Numbered from the stretch's first letter, positions 8,083 to 58,892 are shown. The stretch: DNA of 64,000 nucleotides from Pseudomonadota bacterium (GCA_026418415.1 JAOABK010000005.1:1943-65942); one strand, 5' to 3'. The notes: a model not told the origin generated them from the letters alone. Made by a program: numbers and translations.

Positions 8083-8569
8083 TGTTATAATTAATCAACG
8101 ATCCGATTCGAGGCTAATTGTGGAAAAAACATCTATTTTACAAAACGTTTATATTTTTAAAGATTTAACCTTAGAAGAGTTAAATAAAATAAGCAATATT
8201 TCAACCTTGTTAGAGATGAAATCAGGGCAGAAGTTATTTTCAGAAAATGATGACAGTGATGCTTTATATATTGTAAAACAAGGTAGTGTAATGGTTAAAA
8301 AAGGGTCAATAGTGCTATCTGTGTTAAATGAGGGCGAGTGTATAGGAGAAATTACTTTTATAAACAGAGAGAAAAGAACCGCTACAATAACAGTTATTGA
8401 AAACACCTCGATACTTAAAATAAAATATAAAGACCTTGATGAGCTAATTAAGGAGGATGCAAAAATAGCTTCAAAAATATATAAAGCTATAGCCTTAACA
8501 TTAAGTAAAAGACTAAAAGAAATGACTGAAAATGTTGAAAAAAGATTTCAGCCATTAAAGTTTTTATGA
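8060..8569 (+). CDS. Cyclic-nucleotide-binding domain protein (single cNMP domain, no DNA-binding domain). The true start is probably downstream, around 8118-8121.
   Basis: FKDLTLEELNKI...GECIGEITFINREKRTATITVIE, a cNMP-binding beta-roll. The annotated start overlaps the convergent upstream gene by 23 nt. Confidence 0.6.
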   Translation: MFLIIIFNVIINQRSDSRLIVEKTSILQNVYIFKDLTLEELNKISNISTLLEMKSGQKLFSENDDSDALYIVKQGSVMVKKGSIVLSVLNEGECIGEITFINREKRTATITVIENTSILKIKYKDLDELIKEDAKIASKIYKAIALTLSKRLKEMTENVEKRFQPLKFL

Positions 8570-51580: not shown

Positions 51581-51730
51581 AAAAAACTTTCCCTAAACAT
51601 ATAAGTTTATGATACATTTTGTTTATATATACAAAATTTGTCAAGAATTTTAAATATTGCGATGAGTTATAATTTCGGAGTGTTATTAGAAGATATACGC
51701 TTTCTTTTTAATAAATTATAAAGATAAAGA

Positions 51731-51769
51731 GGTTAAGGAAGAGGTTTTATATTAACCTCAACCTTAACC
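51731..51769 (-). terminator. Imperfect 16-bp hairpin downstream of the rhodanese gene, followed by a U-rich tract. It is a candidate terminator for the cytochrome-rhodanese operon.
   Basis: GGTTAAGGaaGAGGTT-ttatatt-AACCTCaaCCTTAACC. Confidence 0.45.
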
Positions 51770-51811
51770 TTTATTAGCTATTTTTGACTTTAAATAAAGT
51801 TCTTATTTATT

Positions 51812-52714
51812 TTACTTCCAGCTATATTTTACCATTGGAAGAGTAGCATCTCCCGCCCAATCCTGAGCAGAGCCATCATACATTTTAACATTTTTGTAAC
51901 CCAACATCTTGCTTAATACAAACCACCATCCAGAAGCAAGTCTTCCGGTATCACAATAAGTTATAATCTCTTTTTCTTTATCAGATCCCAAAACTCCCTT
52001 AGCCATAGCCTCTAATTCATCTAACATCTTAAAATTGCCATCTTTTGTGTATATCCAACCTGATGGTAAATTTACAGCACTCTCTATGTGTCCTGCTCTC
52101 GCTACAAAGTCCAGTTTAGCAACACCAAAGAAATATTCTGGCATTCTTGTATCTACTATAACACTTTTTCCAATAGCATTTTTAACTAAATTCTTATCAG
52201 CATAGATCTTCTGATTAATTTTGATTTTGAAATTTCCTGCCTTTGGTTTTTTTGTTTCAGTGGTAACAGTTTTCCCTTCCTTCGACCATTTAGTAAATCC
52301 ACCATCTAAAACTGATACTTTCTCAAAACCTGAATAATTTAAAGTCCAAGCAACTCTTGTCATGTTTACTAATTCTGTTAAGTTATCAGATAATCCTACT
52401 ATAACTACCAATGAGTTATCATTTATACCAGCATTTGTAATCAAATCCTGTAAATCATCATTTTCTGGAAGCTCATTTTTTCTTCCAGCTTTTTCAATTG
52501 CCCATGCACTATAAACTACATTAATAGAATTGGGAATATGATTAGCTTTATAATCCTCCGCTTTCCTAATATCAATAATTACAAGATTAGGATTATTAAG
52601 ATTCTTCTCTAACCAATCTGTTGATACCACAGGACTGTAATCGTTTGCCTGTGCAAAGGCAAAAAAAAGTACTACCAATAACCAGCTACCTAAAAAATTC
52701 TTCAATTTTCTCAT
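51812..52714 (-). CDS. Periplasmic tandem-rhodanese thiosulfate/polysulfide sulfurtransferase
   Basis: Signal peptide; two rhodanese domains; catalytic loop CDTGRLAS in the second domain; 300 aa. Confidence 0.8.
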   Translation of the reverse strand: MRKLKNFLGSWLLVVLFFAFAQANDYSPVVSTDWLEKNLNNPNLVIIDIRKAEDYKANHIPNSINVVYSAWAIEKAGRKNELPENDDLQDLITNAGINDNSLVVIVGLSDNLTELVNMTRVAWTLNYSGFEKVSVLDGGFTKWSKEGKTVTTETKKPKAGNFKIKINQKIYADKNLVKNAIGKSVIVDTRMPEYFFGVAKLDFVARAGHIESAVNLPSGWIYTKDGNFKMLDELEAMAKGVLGSDKEKEIITYCDTGRLASGWWFVLSKMLGYKNVKMYDGSAQDWAGDATLPMVKYSWK

Positions 52715-52729
52715 AATATTACCTCCTTT

Positions 52730-53953
52730 TTATTGTCTAAAATCAAATATTAAACCCTCATTAGCACGAGAGCCATTTGGTATTAAGTCCTCTTTCTTAA
52801 GAAAGTTAATCTTTTCAAGATGGCAGGTATCACAGTTTCTTGTTCTATCTGTTCTCTTTTTAATATTATGTGGTGCCGTATCCCAATAATTTGGTAATTT
52901 ATCAAAATTTTCCATTTTTATACCTACTGAAGCAAAGGTATCTCTTACAGTTGGAACAACTCTCAAAGTTGTTAATTGATTTTTAGCTCGTGGATTTCTT
53001 CCAAGTATAAATCCTGGTTTTGCAGAAGAGCCCTTACCTAAATGACAGTTGTAACAGTTTCTATATTCTCCTCCACTATGACAGGCATAACAGCTAACCT
53101 TATCCTCAGAGTGTATTGAATGTGCCTCTTTAGCTTTATCTGTCTTTTCTAAGCCCGACTTATGACACTTTGTACAAGTATTTTTATATTCTAATAATTT
53201 TCTCGCTGTTTGAGGCTTACCATCCCCATGGATCTCTTTTATCGAATGACAATCCATGCACATCATACCTTTTTGATAATGAATATCTGCTGAACCGCCA
53301 TAATCACCAGTAAATTCAGGATAAACTCTACCCCCATGGCAAAGAGCACAGGTCTTTGTTTCATCTTTTCTTATGAATTTATGACCTTTAATTAATCCTA
53401 AATTTACGCCTCCTATTGTTGGTGATTTTACATGACAATCTCCACAGCTGGCATGACAACTTCTACAGGATTTCTCAAAAACCTTTTCATTAAAAATCTT
53501 TTTTTCTGCTTCTGACAATCTTTCGGAGAATATATTTTTTTGACCATAAGGATAGTAATGAAGAGATAGTTTATAACTACTACCTATTTCTTTGTGGCAT
53601 TTGGCACATAAATCTATATTTTCAGAAGGTCTCTTATCTAAGTTTTTATGGGCTTCTTCTTTTTTTTCTTTCTTGTCATCACCTTTGTGACATTTTACAC
53701 ACCCTAACTTTAAATGAACATCACTATTAATTAAATTTTTGTCAACTAAATAAGCTTTATAATACTCTTCCGCCTTAACTGACGGAGGTGCTCCCGCTCA
53801 GCCCTCTCCTTCTTCACCCCCTAAATGAGGAACCTTAACTAATTTTTTTAAAGTTGCTTCATCGGTATGACAAAAAACACATGTGTTCTTTTCAGCACTT
53901 GCATAGCTAATAAAAACAAAGAAAAAGACAAATAGGATTTTTATAAATTTCAT
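52730..53953 (-). CDS. Periplasmic multihaem cytochrome c with 11 CxxCH motifs. It has a single in-frame TGA at 53798..53800, which is a candidate Sec codon or a nonsense mutation. The ORF track reports only the 3' part (52730..53518), and that part begins at an internal TTG.
   Basis: By manual translation, the ATG at 53953 has a GGGAGG RBS and a TTGACA-16-TATAAA promoter. It encodes MKFIKILFVFFFVFISYASA, then CVFCH, ...GEEGEG-TGA-AGAPPS..., CVKCH and CAKCH. The same frame continues without further stops into the annotated ORF, which carries CRSCH, CGDCH, CALCH, CMDCH, CTKCH, CYACH, CYNCH and CDTCH. Confidence 0.6.
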
Positions 53954-53982
53954 ATCTTACCTCCCTATTCTTTAATGAATAT

Positions 53983-54010
53983 TTTATAATTAAAAAAAAC
54001 ACATTGTCAA
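53983..54010 (-). promoter_or_regulatory. Sigma70-type promoter of the cytochrome-rhodanese operon (TTGACA-16-TATAAA)
   Basis: -35 at 54010..54005; -10 at 53988..53983; RBS GGGAGG at 53965..53961. Confidence 0.5.
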
Positions 54011-54226
54011 ATAACTTAATTTATGTTTAAATTAGCCATATTTTTTGTTATTTGACTTAACAATTCATTAGAGCCTTAATATTCCAACTGCAATATAAAA
54101 TATGTTTCTTAAAAAACTATCTATAACATTATTGCATTTATTAAAAGATTATCATCAAAAATTTGAAAGTCAATTTTGAAAATATCTTCTTTATAAAAAA
54201 AATATAGCTCTATATAATTATTAACG

Positions 54227-55123
54227 ATGCAAAATTTCGCTAAGCTTAAAAATAAACTGCTAAGTTTTATAGATAATTTTTGTTGTACCCTTTTAAAAAG
54301 GGATGTCAAATCATCTCAACTTTTTATAATTGGTTTGCCACGTTCTGGTGCAACTTTGGTATATCAGTATATAGTTCACAGGCTACATGTGGCTTACTTT
54401 ACTAATGGTGCAGGCAACAAGCCATATATACCTTGTCTTACAATCTTCTTACAAAAGACTTTTAGAAGACCCTATGTTTCTGATTTCAAAAGTAATTTTG
54501 GAAGAGTTGCTGGCCCCATGGCTCCTCGAGAAGCAGGCAGGATATGGGGAAAGTTCTTCTTACCTGATAAATATGAGACCTATGAAAATATCATAGAAAA
54601 AAAAAGAAAAGAGCTCTACCGTTTGGTAACCTGCATACAAAGCATTTTTGGAGATGTGCCCTTTGTTAATAAAAATGTCAGAAATTCTCTTCACATAGAT
54701 GCCTTAGCAAAAATTTTTCCTAAATCTAATTTTCTTGTTATAGAAAGGAATCTTGAAGATGTTGCTCTCTCTATACTAAGAGCAAGAAAACTAACCCATG
54801 GAGATTATAATTTATGGTTTTCTGTAAAACCAAGGAACTATGAAGAGATAAAAAATCTCTCAATACCAGAACAAATCTTTCATCAAATAAAAGATATCAG
54901 AGAATGTATTAATGAAAGTATCAAAAAATTACCAAAAGATAGAGTAAAGGTGATAAATTATGAAGACTTCTGTAAAGAACCAGAATTGGTAATCAATTTA
55001 TTTTCTAACATATTTATAAATGTTAAAGAGAAGAACCCACCTGTATCACATTTTCTCTCAAAAAAACAACACCCTAACACTACATTAGAGAAAGAGCTTA
55101 TAAAAACTATAACAAAATTATGA
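54227..55123 (+). CDS. Sulfotransferase-family protein (PAPS-dependent)
   Basis: 5'-PSB loop IIGLPRSGATL; 298 aa. Confidence 0.7.
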   Translation: MQNFAKLKNKLLSFIDNFCCTLLKRDVKSSQLFIIGLPRSGATLVYQYIVHRLHVAYFTNGAGNKPYIPCLTIFLQKTFRRPYVSDFKSNFGRVAGPMAPREAGRIWGKFFLPDKYETYENIIEKKRKELYRLVTCIQSIFGDVPFVNKNVRNSLHIDALAKIFPKSNFLVIERNLEDVALSILRARKLTHGDYNLWFSVKPRNYEEIKNLSIPEQIFHQIKDIRECINESIKKLPKDRVKVINYEDFCKEPELVINLFSNIFINVKEKNPPVSHFLSKKQHPNTTLEKELIKTITKL

Positions 55124-57162: not shown

Positions 57163-57966
57163 TTAGATATAACCAAAAGCATTCATAGTATTTCCAAATC
57201 TATCTTTAAGTTTTCTAATATCATTTTCTGTAAAATAATTTAACCATTCATCAATCCTCCCAGAACGAATGAAGGGAATATCTTTTTTTGTATTTTTTAA
57301 CACCTTAGTCTCATCAGACAGTCTTTTTTCATTCTCTTTCATGTTTTCAAATTTTGACTTTTCAATCGCTTTTAGAAATTTATCGTTCGAGACACTTAAC
57401 CTCAAAAATCTAATCACCTTTCTAACTTCCTCTTCAATGTTATTTGATAAATCCTCGTATTTTATTAAAAGGAAATTTTCTAAATCTTGATTTTTCATAA
57501 AGACCCAGCTTTTAACATTTTCTTCCCAAGTACCATAATTATCCAAAGTCCCATCTAAAAATCTTTCAAGAAAATCTTGAAAACTAATTTTTTCGTCTAA
57601 AACATTAAACTTTTTTAAATGAAAGTAATAAGAAACTGCTACACTTCTTGGATCTCTAACAATATAAATAACTTTTTTATATTTAGGATGATAGTATTCA
57701 TGACTTTTAAGTATTCTTGGTCTTGGATATTTTTTTAAAATTTCATTAGGGACTACATATATATCTGGGATTAACTCCTCCATGTTTTTAAAATTAAAGT
57801 CATCATAAATAAGATTACCTATTATAAATCTCATCCATGTATTGCCACTTTTAGGATAAGAAACAATAAATATATCGTCATCAAAATAATCAATATCCCT
57901 ACCCATTTTTTTCCTATTAATATAATCTACAAGAAACATGTTTATTCTCTTTTTAAACCAGTTCAT
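57163..57966 (-). CDS. Sulfotransferase (Sulfotransfer_1 domain)
   Basis: 5'-PSB motif SYPKSGNTW; 3'-PB motif IYIVRDPRSVAVSYY. Confidence 0.8.
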   Translation of the reverse strand: MNWFKKRINMFLVDYINRKKMGRDIDYFDDDIFIVSYPKSGNTWMRFIIGNLIYDDFNFKNMEELIPDIYVVPNEILKKYPRPRILKSHEYYHPKYKKVIYIVRDPRSVAVSYYFHLKKFNVLDEKISFQDFLERFLDGTLDNYGTWEENVKSWVFMKNQDLENFLLIKYEDLSNNIEEEVRKVIRFLRLSVSNDKFLKAIEKSKFENMKENEKRLSDETKVLKNTKKDIPFIRSGRIDEWLNYFTENDIRKLKDRFGNTMNAFGYI

Positions 57967-58892
57967 AAATCACTTGCCCCTTTGTTTTTTAAAATTATTA
58001 ACAGGTGATCTTTTACATTAAACAAATCTGGCACGGTCTTCTTTTCTAATGTTTCTTTATTCCCATTTCTTAAATAATAGTAAAATCTTTGACTTATAAG
58101 AAAAATTAAATTTTGCAAAAAATTTCTTAAAATAACCTTAACTCTTAAATCTATATTATGAGAAAATTTTTTTATATATAAAATTTCAAAATCTAATTTA
58201 CTACATACAAAATTAATCCATTTCAGGTTAATAAAGCTAATATGTTCTATGATTGAACAATAATAGTATCGGTTTTTGTATATTCTTTTCCATAAAAAAT
58301 ATTCTGAATCTCCTGTTGATAAAAGTATAATCCCCTTTGGCTTAAGAATTTCCTTTAAACTTAATAAGAGTGAAAGAGGGTCACTCACATGTTCAATTAC
58401 ATCAAAGAGAGTGATTACATCAAATCTATTATCTATTCCTCTAATATTCAAAAAATTATTTTCTATAATTTTAATTCCCCTTTTCTCTGCCAACTCAGCA
58501 GCATAGGGATTTAACTCAATGCCATATCTATTGTAATACCCATTTAAAGAATCCAAAAACTTCCCATCCCAACAACCCAAATCAAGAATTGATGCATCTT
58601 TTCTTATATTTTCGAATATAAAGTTCTTAGCAATAATCCAGTCAGCCCTATTTTCATAAACATTATCCCAATGAGTGGGATTTAAATTTTTATATAAATC
58701 TTCCAAAATGCTATAGTCCAATTCTGACCACACAAAACATAGATTACAAGAAAGACATCTAAAAAGAAACCTATCTTTACGAGACTCACAATCTAACTTT
58801 ATATCACCAAGATAATAACTCGTGGGTATTAAGCCTAAATTTTTCAGGTTAATACTTTTACAACAGGGACATTGATATTTGACTATTGCCAT
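57963..58892 (-). CDS. Class I SAM-dependent methyltransferase with N-terminal zinc ribbon (sugar C-/O-methyltransferase-like)
   Basis: CPCC...CLSC zinc ribbon; motif I ILDLGCWDGKF. Confidence 0.7.
   Translation of the reverse strand: MAIVKYQCPCCKSINLKNLGLIPTSYYLGDIKLDCESRKDRFLFRCLSCNLCFVWSELDYSILEDLYKNLNPTHWDNVYENRADWIIAKNFIFENIRKDASILDLGCWDGKFLDSLNGYYNRYGIELNPYAAELAEKRGIKIIENNFLNIRGIDNRFDVITLFDVIEHVSDPLSLLLSLKEILKPKGIILLSTGDSEYFLWKRIYKNRYYYCSIIEHISFINLKWINFVCSKLDFEILYIKKFSHNIDLRVKVILRNFLQNLIFLISQRFYYYLRNGNKETLEKKTVPDLFNVKDHLLIILKNKGASDL

Follow-up and report, generated by a model that had tools for sequence, protein, structure and literature searches.

Two minus-strand genes, coding for an 11-haem cytochrome c and a tandem-domain rhodanese, make up a compact operon in the 64-kb window, which is the whole stretch of DNA that was analysed (Table 1). 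The cytochrome gene is preceded by a GGGAGG ribosome-binding site located 6 nt 5' of its ATG, and the AGGAGG site of the rhodanese gene was read within the intercistronic gap. The promoter-like site in front of the operon matches 11 of 12 consensus positions and is the best of the region. It amounts to no more than a match to the consensus, and promoter-like sites as such are not enriched in the region (19 found vs. 14.5 +/- 3.7 expected). A terminator-like hairpin, which a simple terminator scan missed because of its internal loop, lies 41 nt past the rhodanese stop codon. The 122-nt stretch containing it folds with -26 kcal/mol (z = -4.3), and none of 200 shuffled sequences folds as well. 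The 273-nt spacer on the other side of the operon has a G+C content of only 19% and carries promoter-like sites on both strands. The original prediction of an operon with its own promoter and terminator, a 15-nt gap holding a ribosome-binding site, divergent promoters and an AT-rich spacer agrees with these results, and all of its other statements at the sequence level were confirmed.

Table 1. Features of the cytochrome-rhodanese operon and its borders, in window coordinates.
Feature	Position	Strand	Remarks
AT-rich divergent spacer	53954..54226	none	between the operon and a plus-strand sulfotransferase gene
Promoter-like site, TTGACA-18-TAAAAT	54010..53981	minus	28 nt 5' of cytochrome start; sigma-70-like
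11-haem cytochrome c gene	52730..53953	minus	407 codons including the putative Sec52; TAA stop
In-frame TGA, codon 52	53798..53800	minus	in GEG-U-AGAPP; very probably selenocysteine
SECIS-like hairpin	53769..53786	minus	6-bp stem UCCGUC/GGCGGA, loop AGUUAA; 11-nt spacer from UGA
Intercistronic gap, 15 nt	52715..52729	minus	AAAAGGAGGTAATAT on the coding strand; holds rhodanese RBS
Tandem-domain rhodanese gene	51812..52714	minus	300 aa; PF00581 x2
Catalytic Cys254 codon	51953..51955	minus	loop C-D-T-G-R-L-A-S
Terminator-like hairpin	51730..51770	minus	9 + 6 bp with internal loop, then CUUUAUCUUUAU

The cytochrome is encoded in a single frame with 11 CxxCH motifs and one in-frame TGA. It starts with a signal peptide for Sec-type export (MKFIKILFVFFFVFISYASA/EK, ending in ASA/EK), in line with the predicted periplasmic location. 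All 11 CxxCH motifs are kept in 77 of 78 full-length orthologues, together with nine invariant histidines outside the motifs. No extra conserved cysteine was found among these 78 proteins, 44 of which contain exactly 22 cysteines, all within CxxCH. Comparison with NCBIfam yielded generic multihaem domains only and no family above its own cut-off. The weak best matches were ExtN (45 bits), ExtO (43 bits) and ExtM (31 bits), which with family cut-offs of 200-800 bits point to shared domains and not to orthology. The DmsE/MtrA decahaem family (TIGR03508) scored 38.5 bits against a cut-off of 192.2 and covered residues 153-293 only, and the GSU2204-family CXXCH selenoprotein model (NF041027) gave no match at E <= 0.01.

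The rhodanese also carries a Sec-type signal peptide (AFAQA/ND), followed by two PF00581 domains (E 6.7e-36). Its single cysteine is located in the YCDTGRLAS motif, that is, in the six-residue loop of the C-terminal domain, and the N-terminal domain contains none, as is characteristic of tandem-domain rhodaneses. All of the 66 orthologues aligned across the loop retain this residue, and a non-catalytic replacement, which would have spoken against the prediction, was not seen. The consensus of the loop is C-D-[TS]-G-x-x-x-[ST], and many orthologues harbor a second cysteine at position +6. The protein stayed below the cut-offs of the SseA equivalog (NF008557, 94.4 of 250 bits) and of the ExtH equivalog (NF040901, 82.9 of 200 bits).

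Position of the operon in the polysaccharide locus

As predicted, the operon is located between wzz/wza and sulfotransferase genes. Genes for Wzz, Wza and YjbH flank it on one side, and on the other side follow those for a sulfotransferase, a GT2 glycosyltransferase, Wzx, a second sulfotransferase, a methyltransferase, an epimerase, Gmd, RmlD, RmlC and RmlA. The assumption that the operon was inserted into this locus found no support, as the G+C content of the operon (0.336) matches that of the window (0.323) and the synteny in close relatives argues against it. The pair is found at the corresponding site in its closest relatives (L001 and L082/L083), following wzx and adjoining a sulfotransferase gene. 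In the close relative L081 it is positioned directly beside pyrR-pyrB-pyrC-carAB; complex-I-like genes are also found in this neighbourhood, and polysaccharide genes are absent from the examined stretch. In the window, putative counterparts of pyrR-pyrB-pyrC-carAB, assigned by matching ORF length and order, are located about 30 kb from the operon. It is the polysaccharide genes that seem to vary around a resident operon, and a horizontal insertion of the operon was rejected on composition and synteny. L081-L083 share a nitroreductase gene upstream of the cytochrome gene, of which no trace was detected in the AT-rich spacer of the window.

The in-frame TGA of the cytochrome gene

A TGA is present at the identical codon in 79 of 80 species-level loci from several phyla, and the one exception (L020) has CGA. 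L081-L083 also have the TGA at this codon. Across the 80 loci the surrounding motif GEG-U-AGAPPxV and the downstream haem motifs are conserved, the frame is intact and amino acid conservation is strong on both sides of the TGA. In the window, TGA acts as an ordinary stop codon in 15 of 52 long ORFs, which shows that the genetic code is not globally reassigned. Past the TGA, translation could first start again at codon 146, a TTG, and no start precedes haem motif 4 in the window, so that haem motifs 2 and 3 require read-through. The part of the cytochrome downstream of the TGA has no signal peptide of its own.

The stem of the SECIS-like hairpin that follows the UGA is paired in 94.8% of cells; sliding the partner lowers this value to no more than 57%. 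Compensatory changes occur in three of its pairs, and all 80 loci have the same G and U in the loop. Synonymous third positions within the stem are frozen (T in 74, G in 71, G in 79 and G in 80 of the 80 loci), whereas those outside vary freely. Two of the stem codons, CCG and GCG, are rare in this genome of 32% G+C, where they make up 4% of the Pro and 10% of the Ala codons. When only the window sequence was folded by minimum free energy, the hairpin did not stand out (z = -0.99), and RNAalifold recovered it in part only; it is therefore the pair counts and the pattern of synonymous sites that carry the case for a SECIS element. No Rfam model matches the element. These patterns indicate that an RNA hairpin after the UGA is under selection. 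The conserved UGA, the paired hairpin with its invariant GU, the compensatory changes and the frozen synonymous sites make it very probable that the cytochrome is a selenoprotein. The phyla hosting the family commonly use selenocysteine (Sec). The tRNA genes in the window comprise tRNA-Met only, and no tRNA-Sec.

Close non-Sec homologues harbor R, S, A, Y or P at the Sec position, but not Cys. This is unusual for selenoproteins and counts against the function proposed below. A Cys is aligned at this position in two distant superfamily members, P0135 and P0165 (~30-34% identity). The W found in P0001 and P0007 is most likely a TGA translated under another code, as the flanks of P0001 match those of L001, which has TGA. 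In the AlphaFold model of P0001, an 80%-identical homologue, the Sec loop (residues 45-58) has a pLDDT below 50 and is therefore modelled unreliably. This Sec family is absent from NCBIfam and from the 2026 selenoproteome review, and searching the literature for 11-haem or 'cytochrome c3 family' selenoproteins yielded only MccSep/ExtKL, the GSU2204 family and Sec-type octahaem tetrathionate reductase (OTR); the Pelobacter carbinolicus genome paper had no bearing on the family.

Pairing of cytochrome and rhodanese across species

Relatives of the cytochrome were found in 419 species-representative genomes and form 608 protein clusters at 90% identity; the pair is carried by hundreds of anaerobic species. 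In 69 of 80 related species a rhodanese orthologue is located directly downstream of the cytochrome gene on the same strand. One further locus has it directly upstream, and three more contain a second type of rhodanese in the same operon. Overall, the cytochrome operon includes a rhodanese in 73 of 78 assessable loci. These span the deltaproteobacterial groups Syntrophales, Syntrophorhabdaceae and Geobacter/Desulfuromonadales as well as Nitrospirota and Spirochaetota. The pairing is far beyond chance and conserved across phyla, which upholds the functional pair that had been proposed from the window.

An adjacent rhodanese is present in 70 of 77 Sec forms but absent in all four non-Sec variants with enough sequence, which contain R, S, Y and A. 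The Sec loci without it are L046 and L064, which have the second type only, and L053, L058, L065, L072 and L075, which have no rhodanese in the sequence at hand. The non-Sec variants occur at no fewer than three separate places of the neighbour-joining tree. Variants that lost Sec have thus also lost the adjacent rhodanese. The link to the TGA of the partner gene, which the original prediction had found notable, is real and stronger than assumed there.

The operons of some relatives are extended and follow the order cytochrome, rhodanese, large multihaem cytochrome, second rhodanese and CbcL-like membrane protein. In the last of these, an FdnI/cytochrome b561-like membrane domain is joined to a 9-haem cytochrome. 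Twenty loci contain the large cytochrome, 16 the second rhodanese and 12 the membrane protein. The original prediction had suggested to look elsewhere for the cognate membrane quinol dehydrogenase; the CbcL-like protein, encoded in the same operon of these relatives but not in this window, is a candidate for it. No other ORF in the 64-kb window contains a CxxCH motif, and no electron donor is encoded nearby.

Proposed function and alternative readings

The pair probably constitutes a sulfur-reducing, possibly selenium-reducing, enzyme system that has so far gone unrecognised. Judged from the sequences, with moderate confidence, the operon would encode a periplasmic Sec-dependent reductase of sulfane sulfur (polysulfide or thiosulfate) that is fed by the rhodanese. 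Export of both proteins by their Sec-type signal peptides would give a two-component periplasmic system. The UGA at codon 52 would be decoded as Sec, directed by the SECIS-like hairpin 11 nt downstream, and the cytochrome would be made only with Sec decoding, as a protein with 11 haems whose one selenol would sit on the flexible loop separating haems 1 and 2. The rhodanese may take sulfane sulfur from polysulfide, thiosulfate or another sulfane donor and hold it as a persulfide on Cys254. Transfer of this sulfur to Sec52 would produce a selenenyl-sulfide adduct, which electrons from the haem chain could reduce with release of sulfide. We infer that these electrons ultimately stem from the menaquinol pool; the donor would be the operon-encoded CbcL-like membrane cytochrome in some relatives and a protein encoded outside the window in this genome. 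Many of the hosts belong to syntrophic lineages that are not known to respire sulfur, which counts against a sulfane-sulfur reductase.

Cleavage of S-S bonds by haem and selenocysteine was first demonstrated in 2026 for the 5-haem MccSep (PMC13510729). MccSep (ExtKL, GSU2937-2936) of Geobacter sulfurreducens is a periplasmic selenoprotein that functions as a polysulfide reductase, with an essential Sec and a weaker selenite activity (Sci Adv 2026, PMC13510729). The genes for MccSep, gsu2937-2936 (extKL), are part of the ext cluster, in which the rhodanese-like lipoprotein ExtH is encoded as well (PMC13510729, PMC6148476). The window cytochrome shares with MccSep the architecture of a periplasmic multihaem cytochrome c, an in-frame UGA that is read as Sec (very probably so in the window cytochrome) and a SECIS-like hairpin just downstream. 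Both are split or shortened by gene callers, occur mainly in Desulfobacterota and Nitrospirota, and are accompanied by a rhodanese-type protein. Plausibly, by analogy, a selenol acts in both as the nucleophile on a chalcogen substrate and the haems serve as the electron source. However, the window cytochrome has 11 haems instead of five, and its Sec is located near the N-terminus in GEG-U-AGAPP, whereas that of MccSep is part of a DG(U/C)P loop in a C-terminal Ig-like domain (PMC13510729). A strictly conserved Cys is the distal ligand of the active-site haem in MccSep, but the 78 orthologues of the window cytochrome lack any conserved non-haem Cys that could form such a His/Cys-ligated haem. 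Non-Sec relatives differ as well, with Cys in the case of MccSep and R, S, A, Y or P in the present family, and the MccSep model (NF040886) gave no match to the window cytochrome at E <= 0.01. The window cytochrome would resemble MccSep in its working, but is not a member of its family. ExtH (GSU2940, NF040901) and the window rhodanese have the rhodanese fold in common and are both genetically tied to a Sec multihaem cytochrome, but the former is a lipoprotein (430 model positions) from a porin-cytochrome cluster, whereas the latter is a soluble, translationally coupled tandem-domain protein of 300 aa.

Sud/Psr of Wolinella succinogenes is a precedent for a periplasmic rhodanese-like transferase that feeds polysulfide sulfur to polysulfide reductase. 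Here as well, a rhodanese-type carrier with one catalytic Cys would bring sulfane sulfur to a respiratory reductase in the periplasm. The reductase PsrABC, however, is a molybdopterin enzyme and not a haem selenoprotein, and Sud is a single-domain dimer that is related in sequence to the tandem-domain window rhodanese only at the level of the rhodanese fold. The nearest fold to the window cytochrome is predicted to be that of OTR from Shewanella oneidensis (PDB 1sp3, TIGR04315), another multihaem enzyme of the periplasm that acts on S-S bonds, but with eight haems instead of 11. The window cytochrome did not match TIGR04315 at E <= 0.01, and a sequence-level match to 1sp3 was not obtained even by profile. 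Sec-containing members of the OTR family are listed as GenBank-annotated in the 2026 selenoproteome review. In Dethiobacter alkaliphilus, the multihaem cytochrome DealDRAFT_1917 is encoded beside rhodanese-domain genes, is up-regulated on thiosulfate and was proposed to be a non-canonical sulfur or thiosulfate reductase (PMC10376724). This protein, described as octahaem and SirA/Otr-like, stems from a Gram-positive host and has no reported selenocysteine.

As rhodaneses are known selenium carriers, the operon could also be a selenium/tellurium module. With Se bound to the rhodanese as a perselenide or selenotrisulfide, the Sec-cytochrome would reduce periplasmic selenite or tellurite, either to detoxify them or to respire. 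The weak best NCBIfam matches (ExtN, ExtO, ExtM and ExtH) are indeed proteins of a Geobacter selenite/tellurite reduction operon, but all remain far under the cut-offs given above. MccSep also reduces selenite, but this is its poorer substrate (apparent K0.5 of 0.99 mM vs. 0.19 mM for polysulfide), and its physiological role is sulfur respiration (PMC13510729). Moreover, the family is abundant, judging from record titles, in freshwater, sediments and digesters, most of which contain little selenite, and we consider such a module unlikely. The direction of electron flow might alternatively be reversed, so that sulfide, polysulfide or thiosulfate is oxidised at Sec, the rhodanese handles the sulfane intermediate and electrons leave via the 11 haems to periplasmic or extracellular acceptors, as in TsdA or SoxAX. 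The MccSep reaction has been related by its authors to the reverse of those of TsdA and SoxAX (PMC13510729). Multihaem chains are reversible wires, and some loci harbor extra large multihaem cytochromes of the extracellular-electron-transfer kind. The title of PMC12545173, 'Microbial iron oxide respiration coupled to sulfide oxidation', would fit such a direction. However, the sole characterised Sec-multihaem enzyme is a reductase, and CbcL-like proteins of Geobacter are known above all for oxidising quinol and feeding periplasmic cytochromes; we consider an oxidative role unlikely.

The position of the pair between wzx/GT2/sulfotransferase and export genes in the window, L001 and L082/L083 would fit an operon that serves the polysaccharide locus, for example by redox or sulfur chemistry for a sulfated exopolysaccharide. 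Sulfotransferases, however, use cytoplasmic PAPS and not periplasmic sulfane sulfur. In L081 the pair has pyrimidine-biosynthesis and complex-I-like genes as neighbours, and clustering of neighbour genes in the other 79 loci revealed cytochromes, rhodaneses and flavocytochromes, but not polysaccharide genes. This lack of conserved linkage largely refutes the role in the locus, which is very improbable. Finally, the TGA might be a genuine stop codon, which would turn the cytochrome into a pseudogene or split gene and leave the pairing without function. Gene callers do shorten the protein, most database entries having ~346 aa, and the window cytochrome is missing from the protein collection while the window rhodanese is present (P0270). 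Nevertheless, the retention of the TGA in an intact frame with conserved flanks, the lack of a signal peptide and of an early start in the downstream part, and the selected RNA hairpin effectively refute this explanation, whose remaining probability is negligible.

Returning to the Sec-dependent sulfane-sulfur reductase, we tentatively suggest an extension to a widespread and hitherto unrecognised class of multihaem selenoenzymes. Sec would be their only non-haem chalcogen residue and may ligate, or lie over, one of the two haems without an invariant distal His; each enzyme would form an obligate couple with a dedicated periplasmic rhodanese giving sulfane sulfur directly to the selenol. A second family of different architecture, set apart by 11 haems, an N-terminal Sec, the absence of a His/Cys haem and a hard-wired rhodanese partner, would make haem-Sec chemistry a recurrent solution and not a one-off. 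In nature, it would moreover provide a system in which to study how sulfane sulfur passes from one protein to the selenol of another. The co-loss of Sec and rhodanese leads to a directly testable prediction. If true, this would be an overlooked respiratory polysulfide/thiosulfate reductase and an alternative electron sink for syntrophic Syntrophales and Syntrophorhabdaceae, Nitrospirota and some spirochaetes.

The cytochrome family is systematically mis-annotated, and databases shorten or miss the cytochrome. As a consequence, a candidate reductase of the sulfur cycle is overlooked when the metabolism of syntrophs, Nitrospirota and spirochaetes from sediments, groundwater and digesters is reconstructed, and selenoproteins are under-counted. 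Annotations in the present family include a shortened 'cytochrome c3 family protein', 'thiosulfate sulfurtransferase' and 'hypothetical protein', and the window rhodanese is named 'sulfurtransferase'. DealDRAFT_1917 was earlier misnamed 'thiosulfate sulfurtransferase' (PMC10376724), and the same JGI name is attached to some cytochromes of the present family (P0048, P0053 and P0086).

The operon and the in-frame TGA of its cytochrome gene

The two-gene operon of the original prediction, with its own promoter and terminator, an 11-haem cytochrome, a 15-nt gap and a rhodanese carrying the loop CDTGRLAS, was confirmed in every detail (see table). The cytochrome contains 11 CxxCH haem-binding motifs behind a typical N-terminal signal peptide (MKFIKILFVFFFVFISYASA/EK), and no other CxxCH-containing ORF was found in the whole 64 kb. 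The rhodanese comprises two PF00581 domains (E 6.7e-36) and a single Cys, located within the loop YCDTGRLAS.

Coordinates of the operon and of neighbouring features in the window
Feature	Position	Strand	Remarks
Cytochrome gene	ATG at 53953 to TAA at 52730-52732	-	single frame, 407 codons
In-frame TGA, codon 52	53800..53798	-	sole interruption of the cytochrome frame
Intercistronic gap	between cytochrome stop and rhodanese gene	-	15 nt, AAAAGGAGGTAATAT
Rhodanese gene	52714..51812	-	300 aa; own signal peptide …AFAQA/ND
Promoter-like site TTGACA-18-TAAAAT	54010..53981	-	11/12 matches to consensus
Strong hairpin, then U-rich tract	51770..51730	-	fold of the 122-nt stretch containing the hairpin: -26 kcal/mol, z = -4.3
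Upstream spacer	53954..54226		19% G+C
Two sulfotransferase genes and one methyltransferase gene	54227..55123, 57163..57966, 57963..58892	+, -, -	inside the polysaccharide locus
ORFs of 190, 314, 425, 377 and 1083 aa	14346..21494	-	match pyrR-pyrB-pyrC-carA-carB of L081 by length and order alone

The TGA, already flagged in the original prediction, proved to be conserved. Relatives of the cytochrome were located in 419 genomes, scanned at one genome per species, and 80 loci were fetched from Syntrophales, Syntrophorhabdaceae, Smithellaceae, Geobacter/Desulfuromonadales, Nitrospirota, Rectinemataceae and Treponemataceae. The equivalent codon is TGA in 79/80 loci, inside the conserved motif GEG-U-AGAPPxV (U, selenocysteine, Sec); L020 has CGA. 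It is followed, after an 11-nt spacer, by a hairpin with a 6-bp stem (UCCGYC/GGCGGA) and a 6-nt loop in which one G and one U never vary. A spacing of 11 nt and GU in the apical loop are expected of bacterial SECIS elements, the hairpins that direct UGA read-through. Across the 80 sequences 94.8% of the stem cells are paired, versus no more than 57% after the 3' partners have been shifted along, and compensatory double changes occur in three of the six stem pairs. Synonymous third positions within the stem are nearly frozen (T 74/80, G 71/80, G 79/80, G 80/80) and those immediately outside it vary freely; the window's stem codons CCG and GCG account for merely 4% of its Pro and 10% of its Ala codons. 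Paired stem, frozen synonymous sites and rare codons together indicate selection on the RNA, of the sort expected for a bacterial SECIS element.

Of the window's 52 long ORFs, 15 end in TGA, which shows that the code is not reassigned there. The earliest possible start after the TGA is a TTG at codon 146, past haem motifs 2 and 3, and the part 3' of the TGA lacks a signal peptide. Thus, a functional c-type cytochrome can be made only by read-through. The TGA is very probably a selenocysteine codon (Sec52), and the family one of multihaem selenoproteins.

Coupling of cytochrome and rhodanese

An orthologous tandem rhodanese lies directly downstream of the cytochrome on the same strand in 69/80 loci and directly upstream in L066. 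A shorter, second-type tandem rhodanese takes its place about 3 kb downstream in L020, L046 and L064. The contig stops right after the cytochrome in two loci, and the available sequence of five contains no rhodanese. A non-catalytic residue in orthologues, or a pair conserved nowhere, had been named as grounds against the original prediction. A rhodanese of one type or the other accompanies the cytochrome in 73/78 assessable loci, and every one of the 66 orthologues aligned across the loop keeps the catalytic Cys (consensus C-D-[TS]-G-x-x-x-[ST]). All rhodanese orthologues inspected have signal peptides.

Four variants without Sec have enough flanking sequence, namely CGA (R, L020/P0006), TCA (S, P0008), TAC (Y, P0035) and GCA (A, P0009). 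None of the four has an adjacent rhodanese; in each, a large multihaem cytochrome is encoded directly 3' of the cytochrome gene. Of the Sec forms, 70/77 have an adjacent rhodanese. By our own arithmetic, which takes no account of phylogeny, the four would all belong by chance to the eleven loci that have no adjacent rhodanese with a probability of about 2e-4. In a neighbour-joining tree the non-Sec variants occupy three or more separate positions, which suggests that Sec and the adjacent rhodanese were lost together repeatedly. On these sequence comparisons, the two proteins are a conserved, functionally coupled pair.

In L085 (5001-6239), with Tyr at the Sec position (codon TAC), the former SECIS stem is degraded from GGCGGA to AACGGA, consistent with relaxed RNA-level constraint after Sec loss. 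The non-Sec variants L084 and L086 retain most of the former stem.

Genomic neighbourhood

The operon is flanked by a polysaccharide locus, with Wzz, Wza and YjbH on one side and two sulfotransferases, a GT2 glycosyltransferase, Wzx, a methyltransferase, an epimerase, Gmd and RmlDCA on the other. The sulfotransferase and methyltransferase genes suggest that this locus makes a sulfated and methylated exopolysaccharide. Sulfotransferases also occur in the equivalent locus of L001 and L082.

The original prediction had taken the operon for an insertion into this locus, against which both composition and synteny argue. At 0.336, the G+C content of the operon matches the window's 0.323. In L001 and L082/L083, the closest loci by cytochrome identity (about 80-83%), the pair has the equivalent place after wzx and beside a sulfotransferase. 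In L081 (81%) it lies between complex-I/Mbh-like genes and pyrR-pyrB-pyrC-carA-carB, which follow immediately downstream, and the stretch examined contains no polysaccharide genes. In the window the pyr/car-like ORFs lie about 30 kb downstream of the pair, with wzz, wza, yjbH and a tRNA-Met gene among the genes in between. A 207-aa nitroreductase-family gene directly precedes the cytochrome in L081 (7006-7629), L082 (6943-7566) and L083 (1639-2262); the window's upstream spacer holds no trace of this gene or a remnant. Among the fetched loci, no link between pair and polysaccharide genes was seen outside this small lineage. The simplest reading is that the pair is resident in the lineage and the polysaccharide genes were rearranged around it.

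One clade has an extended operon, in which cytochrome and rhodanese are followed by a multihaem cytochrome of about 535-900 aa (20 loci), a second rhodanese of about 250 aa (16 loci) and a protein of about 625 aa (12 loci). The latter carries nine CxxCH motifs by our count, fused to an FdnI/cytochrome b561-like membrane domain (TIGR01583, 34 bits; PF01292, 29 bits against a cut-off of 30.1), which we take to be the architecture of CbcL-type quinol oxidoreductases. The cognate membrane quinol dehydrogenase proposed for a search in the original prediction thus has a CbcL-like candidate in relatives; the window encodes no CbcL-like or similar partner near the pair.

The second rhodanese is also tandem. 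The extension lies 2-7 kb 3' of the cytochrome in L002, L023, L037, L046, L048, L054-L056, L064, L067, L074, L077 and others. The large cytochrome gene 3' of the rhodanese in L002 contains an in-frame TGA (8485-8487; …SPGIFGKG*TPGISSGR…), where the L046 homologue reads …SPGMYGKWSPFTAAGR…; possible explanations are a second site of recoding, mutation of TGG to TGA, or an error in long-read sequencing. In one clade a Tat-signal flavocytochrome c (TIGR01813, 472 bits in the representative L043) and a small membrane-anchored multihaem cytochrome of about 177 aa are often encoded just upstream of the Sec-cytochrome, at 1-3 kb (L034, L041, L043, L047, L055, L060, L062, L074, L080, L087).

Family relations and proposed function

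The best NCBIfam release 20 matches of the window cytochrome are all weak and sub-threshold: ExtN (45 bits), ExtO (43), ExtM (31) and, of the homologues suggested in the original prediction, the DmsE family (38.5 bits). Octahaem tetrathionate reductase (OTR, TIGR04315), also suggested, gave no match at E <= 0.01, nor did ExtKL/MccSep (NF040886) or the GSU2204 family (NF041027). These three families are the haem-related selenoproteins listed by a review of prokaryotic selenoproteomes from May 2026 (PMC13188914), and no description of an 11-haem selenoprotein was found in the literature searched. Among 78 full-length translations all 11 CxxCH motifs are kept in 77, no extra Cys is conserved, and nine non-motif His are invariant, leaving two haems without an invariant distal His. 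Searching 1.8 billion representative proteins with a profile returned 138 relatives at E <= 1e-30. More distant relatives (about 30-34% identity) share the 11-haem scaffold, two of them with Cys aligned at the Sec position; the loop that follows haem 1 varies among them or is absent, which makes the Sec loop a speciality of the window cytochrome's subfamily. The AlphaFold model of P0001, 80% identical to the window protein, has a mean pLDDT of 78, falling below 50 for residues 45-58. The cytochromes are very probably an unannotated, widespread multihaem selenoprotein family with a dedicated rhodanese partner. The original observation holds up and is of greater interest than first described, and the system varies an enzyme type whose first characterisation dates from 2026.

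In the Sud-Psr pair of Wolinella a periplasmic rhodanese feeds polysulfide reductase, and the window system likewise pairs a periplasmic rhodanese with a putative reductase. The best precedent is the polysulfide reductase that serves sulfur respiration in Geobacter sulfurreducens, the periplasmic 5-haem selenoprotein MccSep (ExtKL), whose Sec325 attacks the substrate beside a His/Cys-ligated haem and whose selenite activity is weaker (PMC13510729). MccSep is encoded in the ext cluster, as is the rhodanese-like ExtH. Both systems combine a haem wire in the periplasm with a single selenol and a rhodanese associated with them, but the window cytochrome differs in haem count and Sec position and has neither a ligand Cys nor an HMM match; it fails every test of MccSep/ExtKL membership. 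A thiosulfate-induced multihaem cytochrome of Dethiobacter is similarly encoded beside rhodanese genes (PMC10376724). From these parallels we propose that a persulfide on the catalytic Cys254 of the rhodanese would pass its sulfane sulfur to Sec52, with electrons from the haem chain then reducing the Se-S adduct to sulfide. A sulfur-reductase function is plausible; which substrate is used (sulfur or selenium), which way electrons flow and how the site at the haem is arranged are all inferred. The residues at the Sec position of non-Sec relatives (R, S, A, Y or P, not Cys) are not easily accommodated by this model. Such relatives may have abandoned the Sec-dependent activity completely, which would agree with their having lost the rhodanese.

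Public protein collections mostly store the cytochrome in a truncated form of about 346 aa. The window cytochrome is absent from the collection, though its rhodanese is present (P0270). Two 'full-length' entries, P0001 and P0007, have W at the Sec position, which most likely stems from translating TGA with a different genetic code, given that P0001 and L001 have identical flanks and the codon is TGA in L001. Some family cytochromes (P0048, P0053, P0086) bear the JGI name 'thiosulfate/3-mercaptopyruvate sulfurtransferase', a misnaming also reported for DealDRAFT_1917 of Dethiobacter (PMC10376724).
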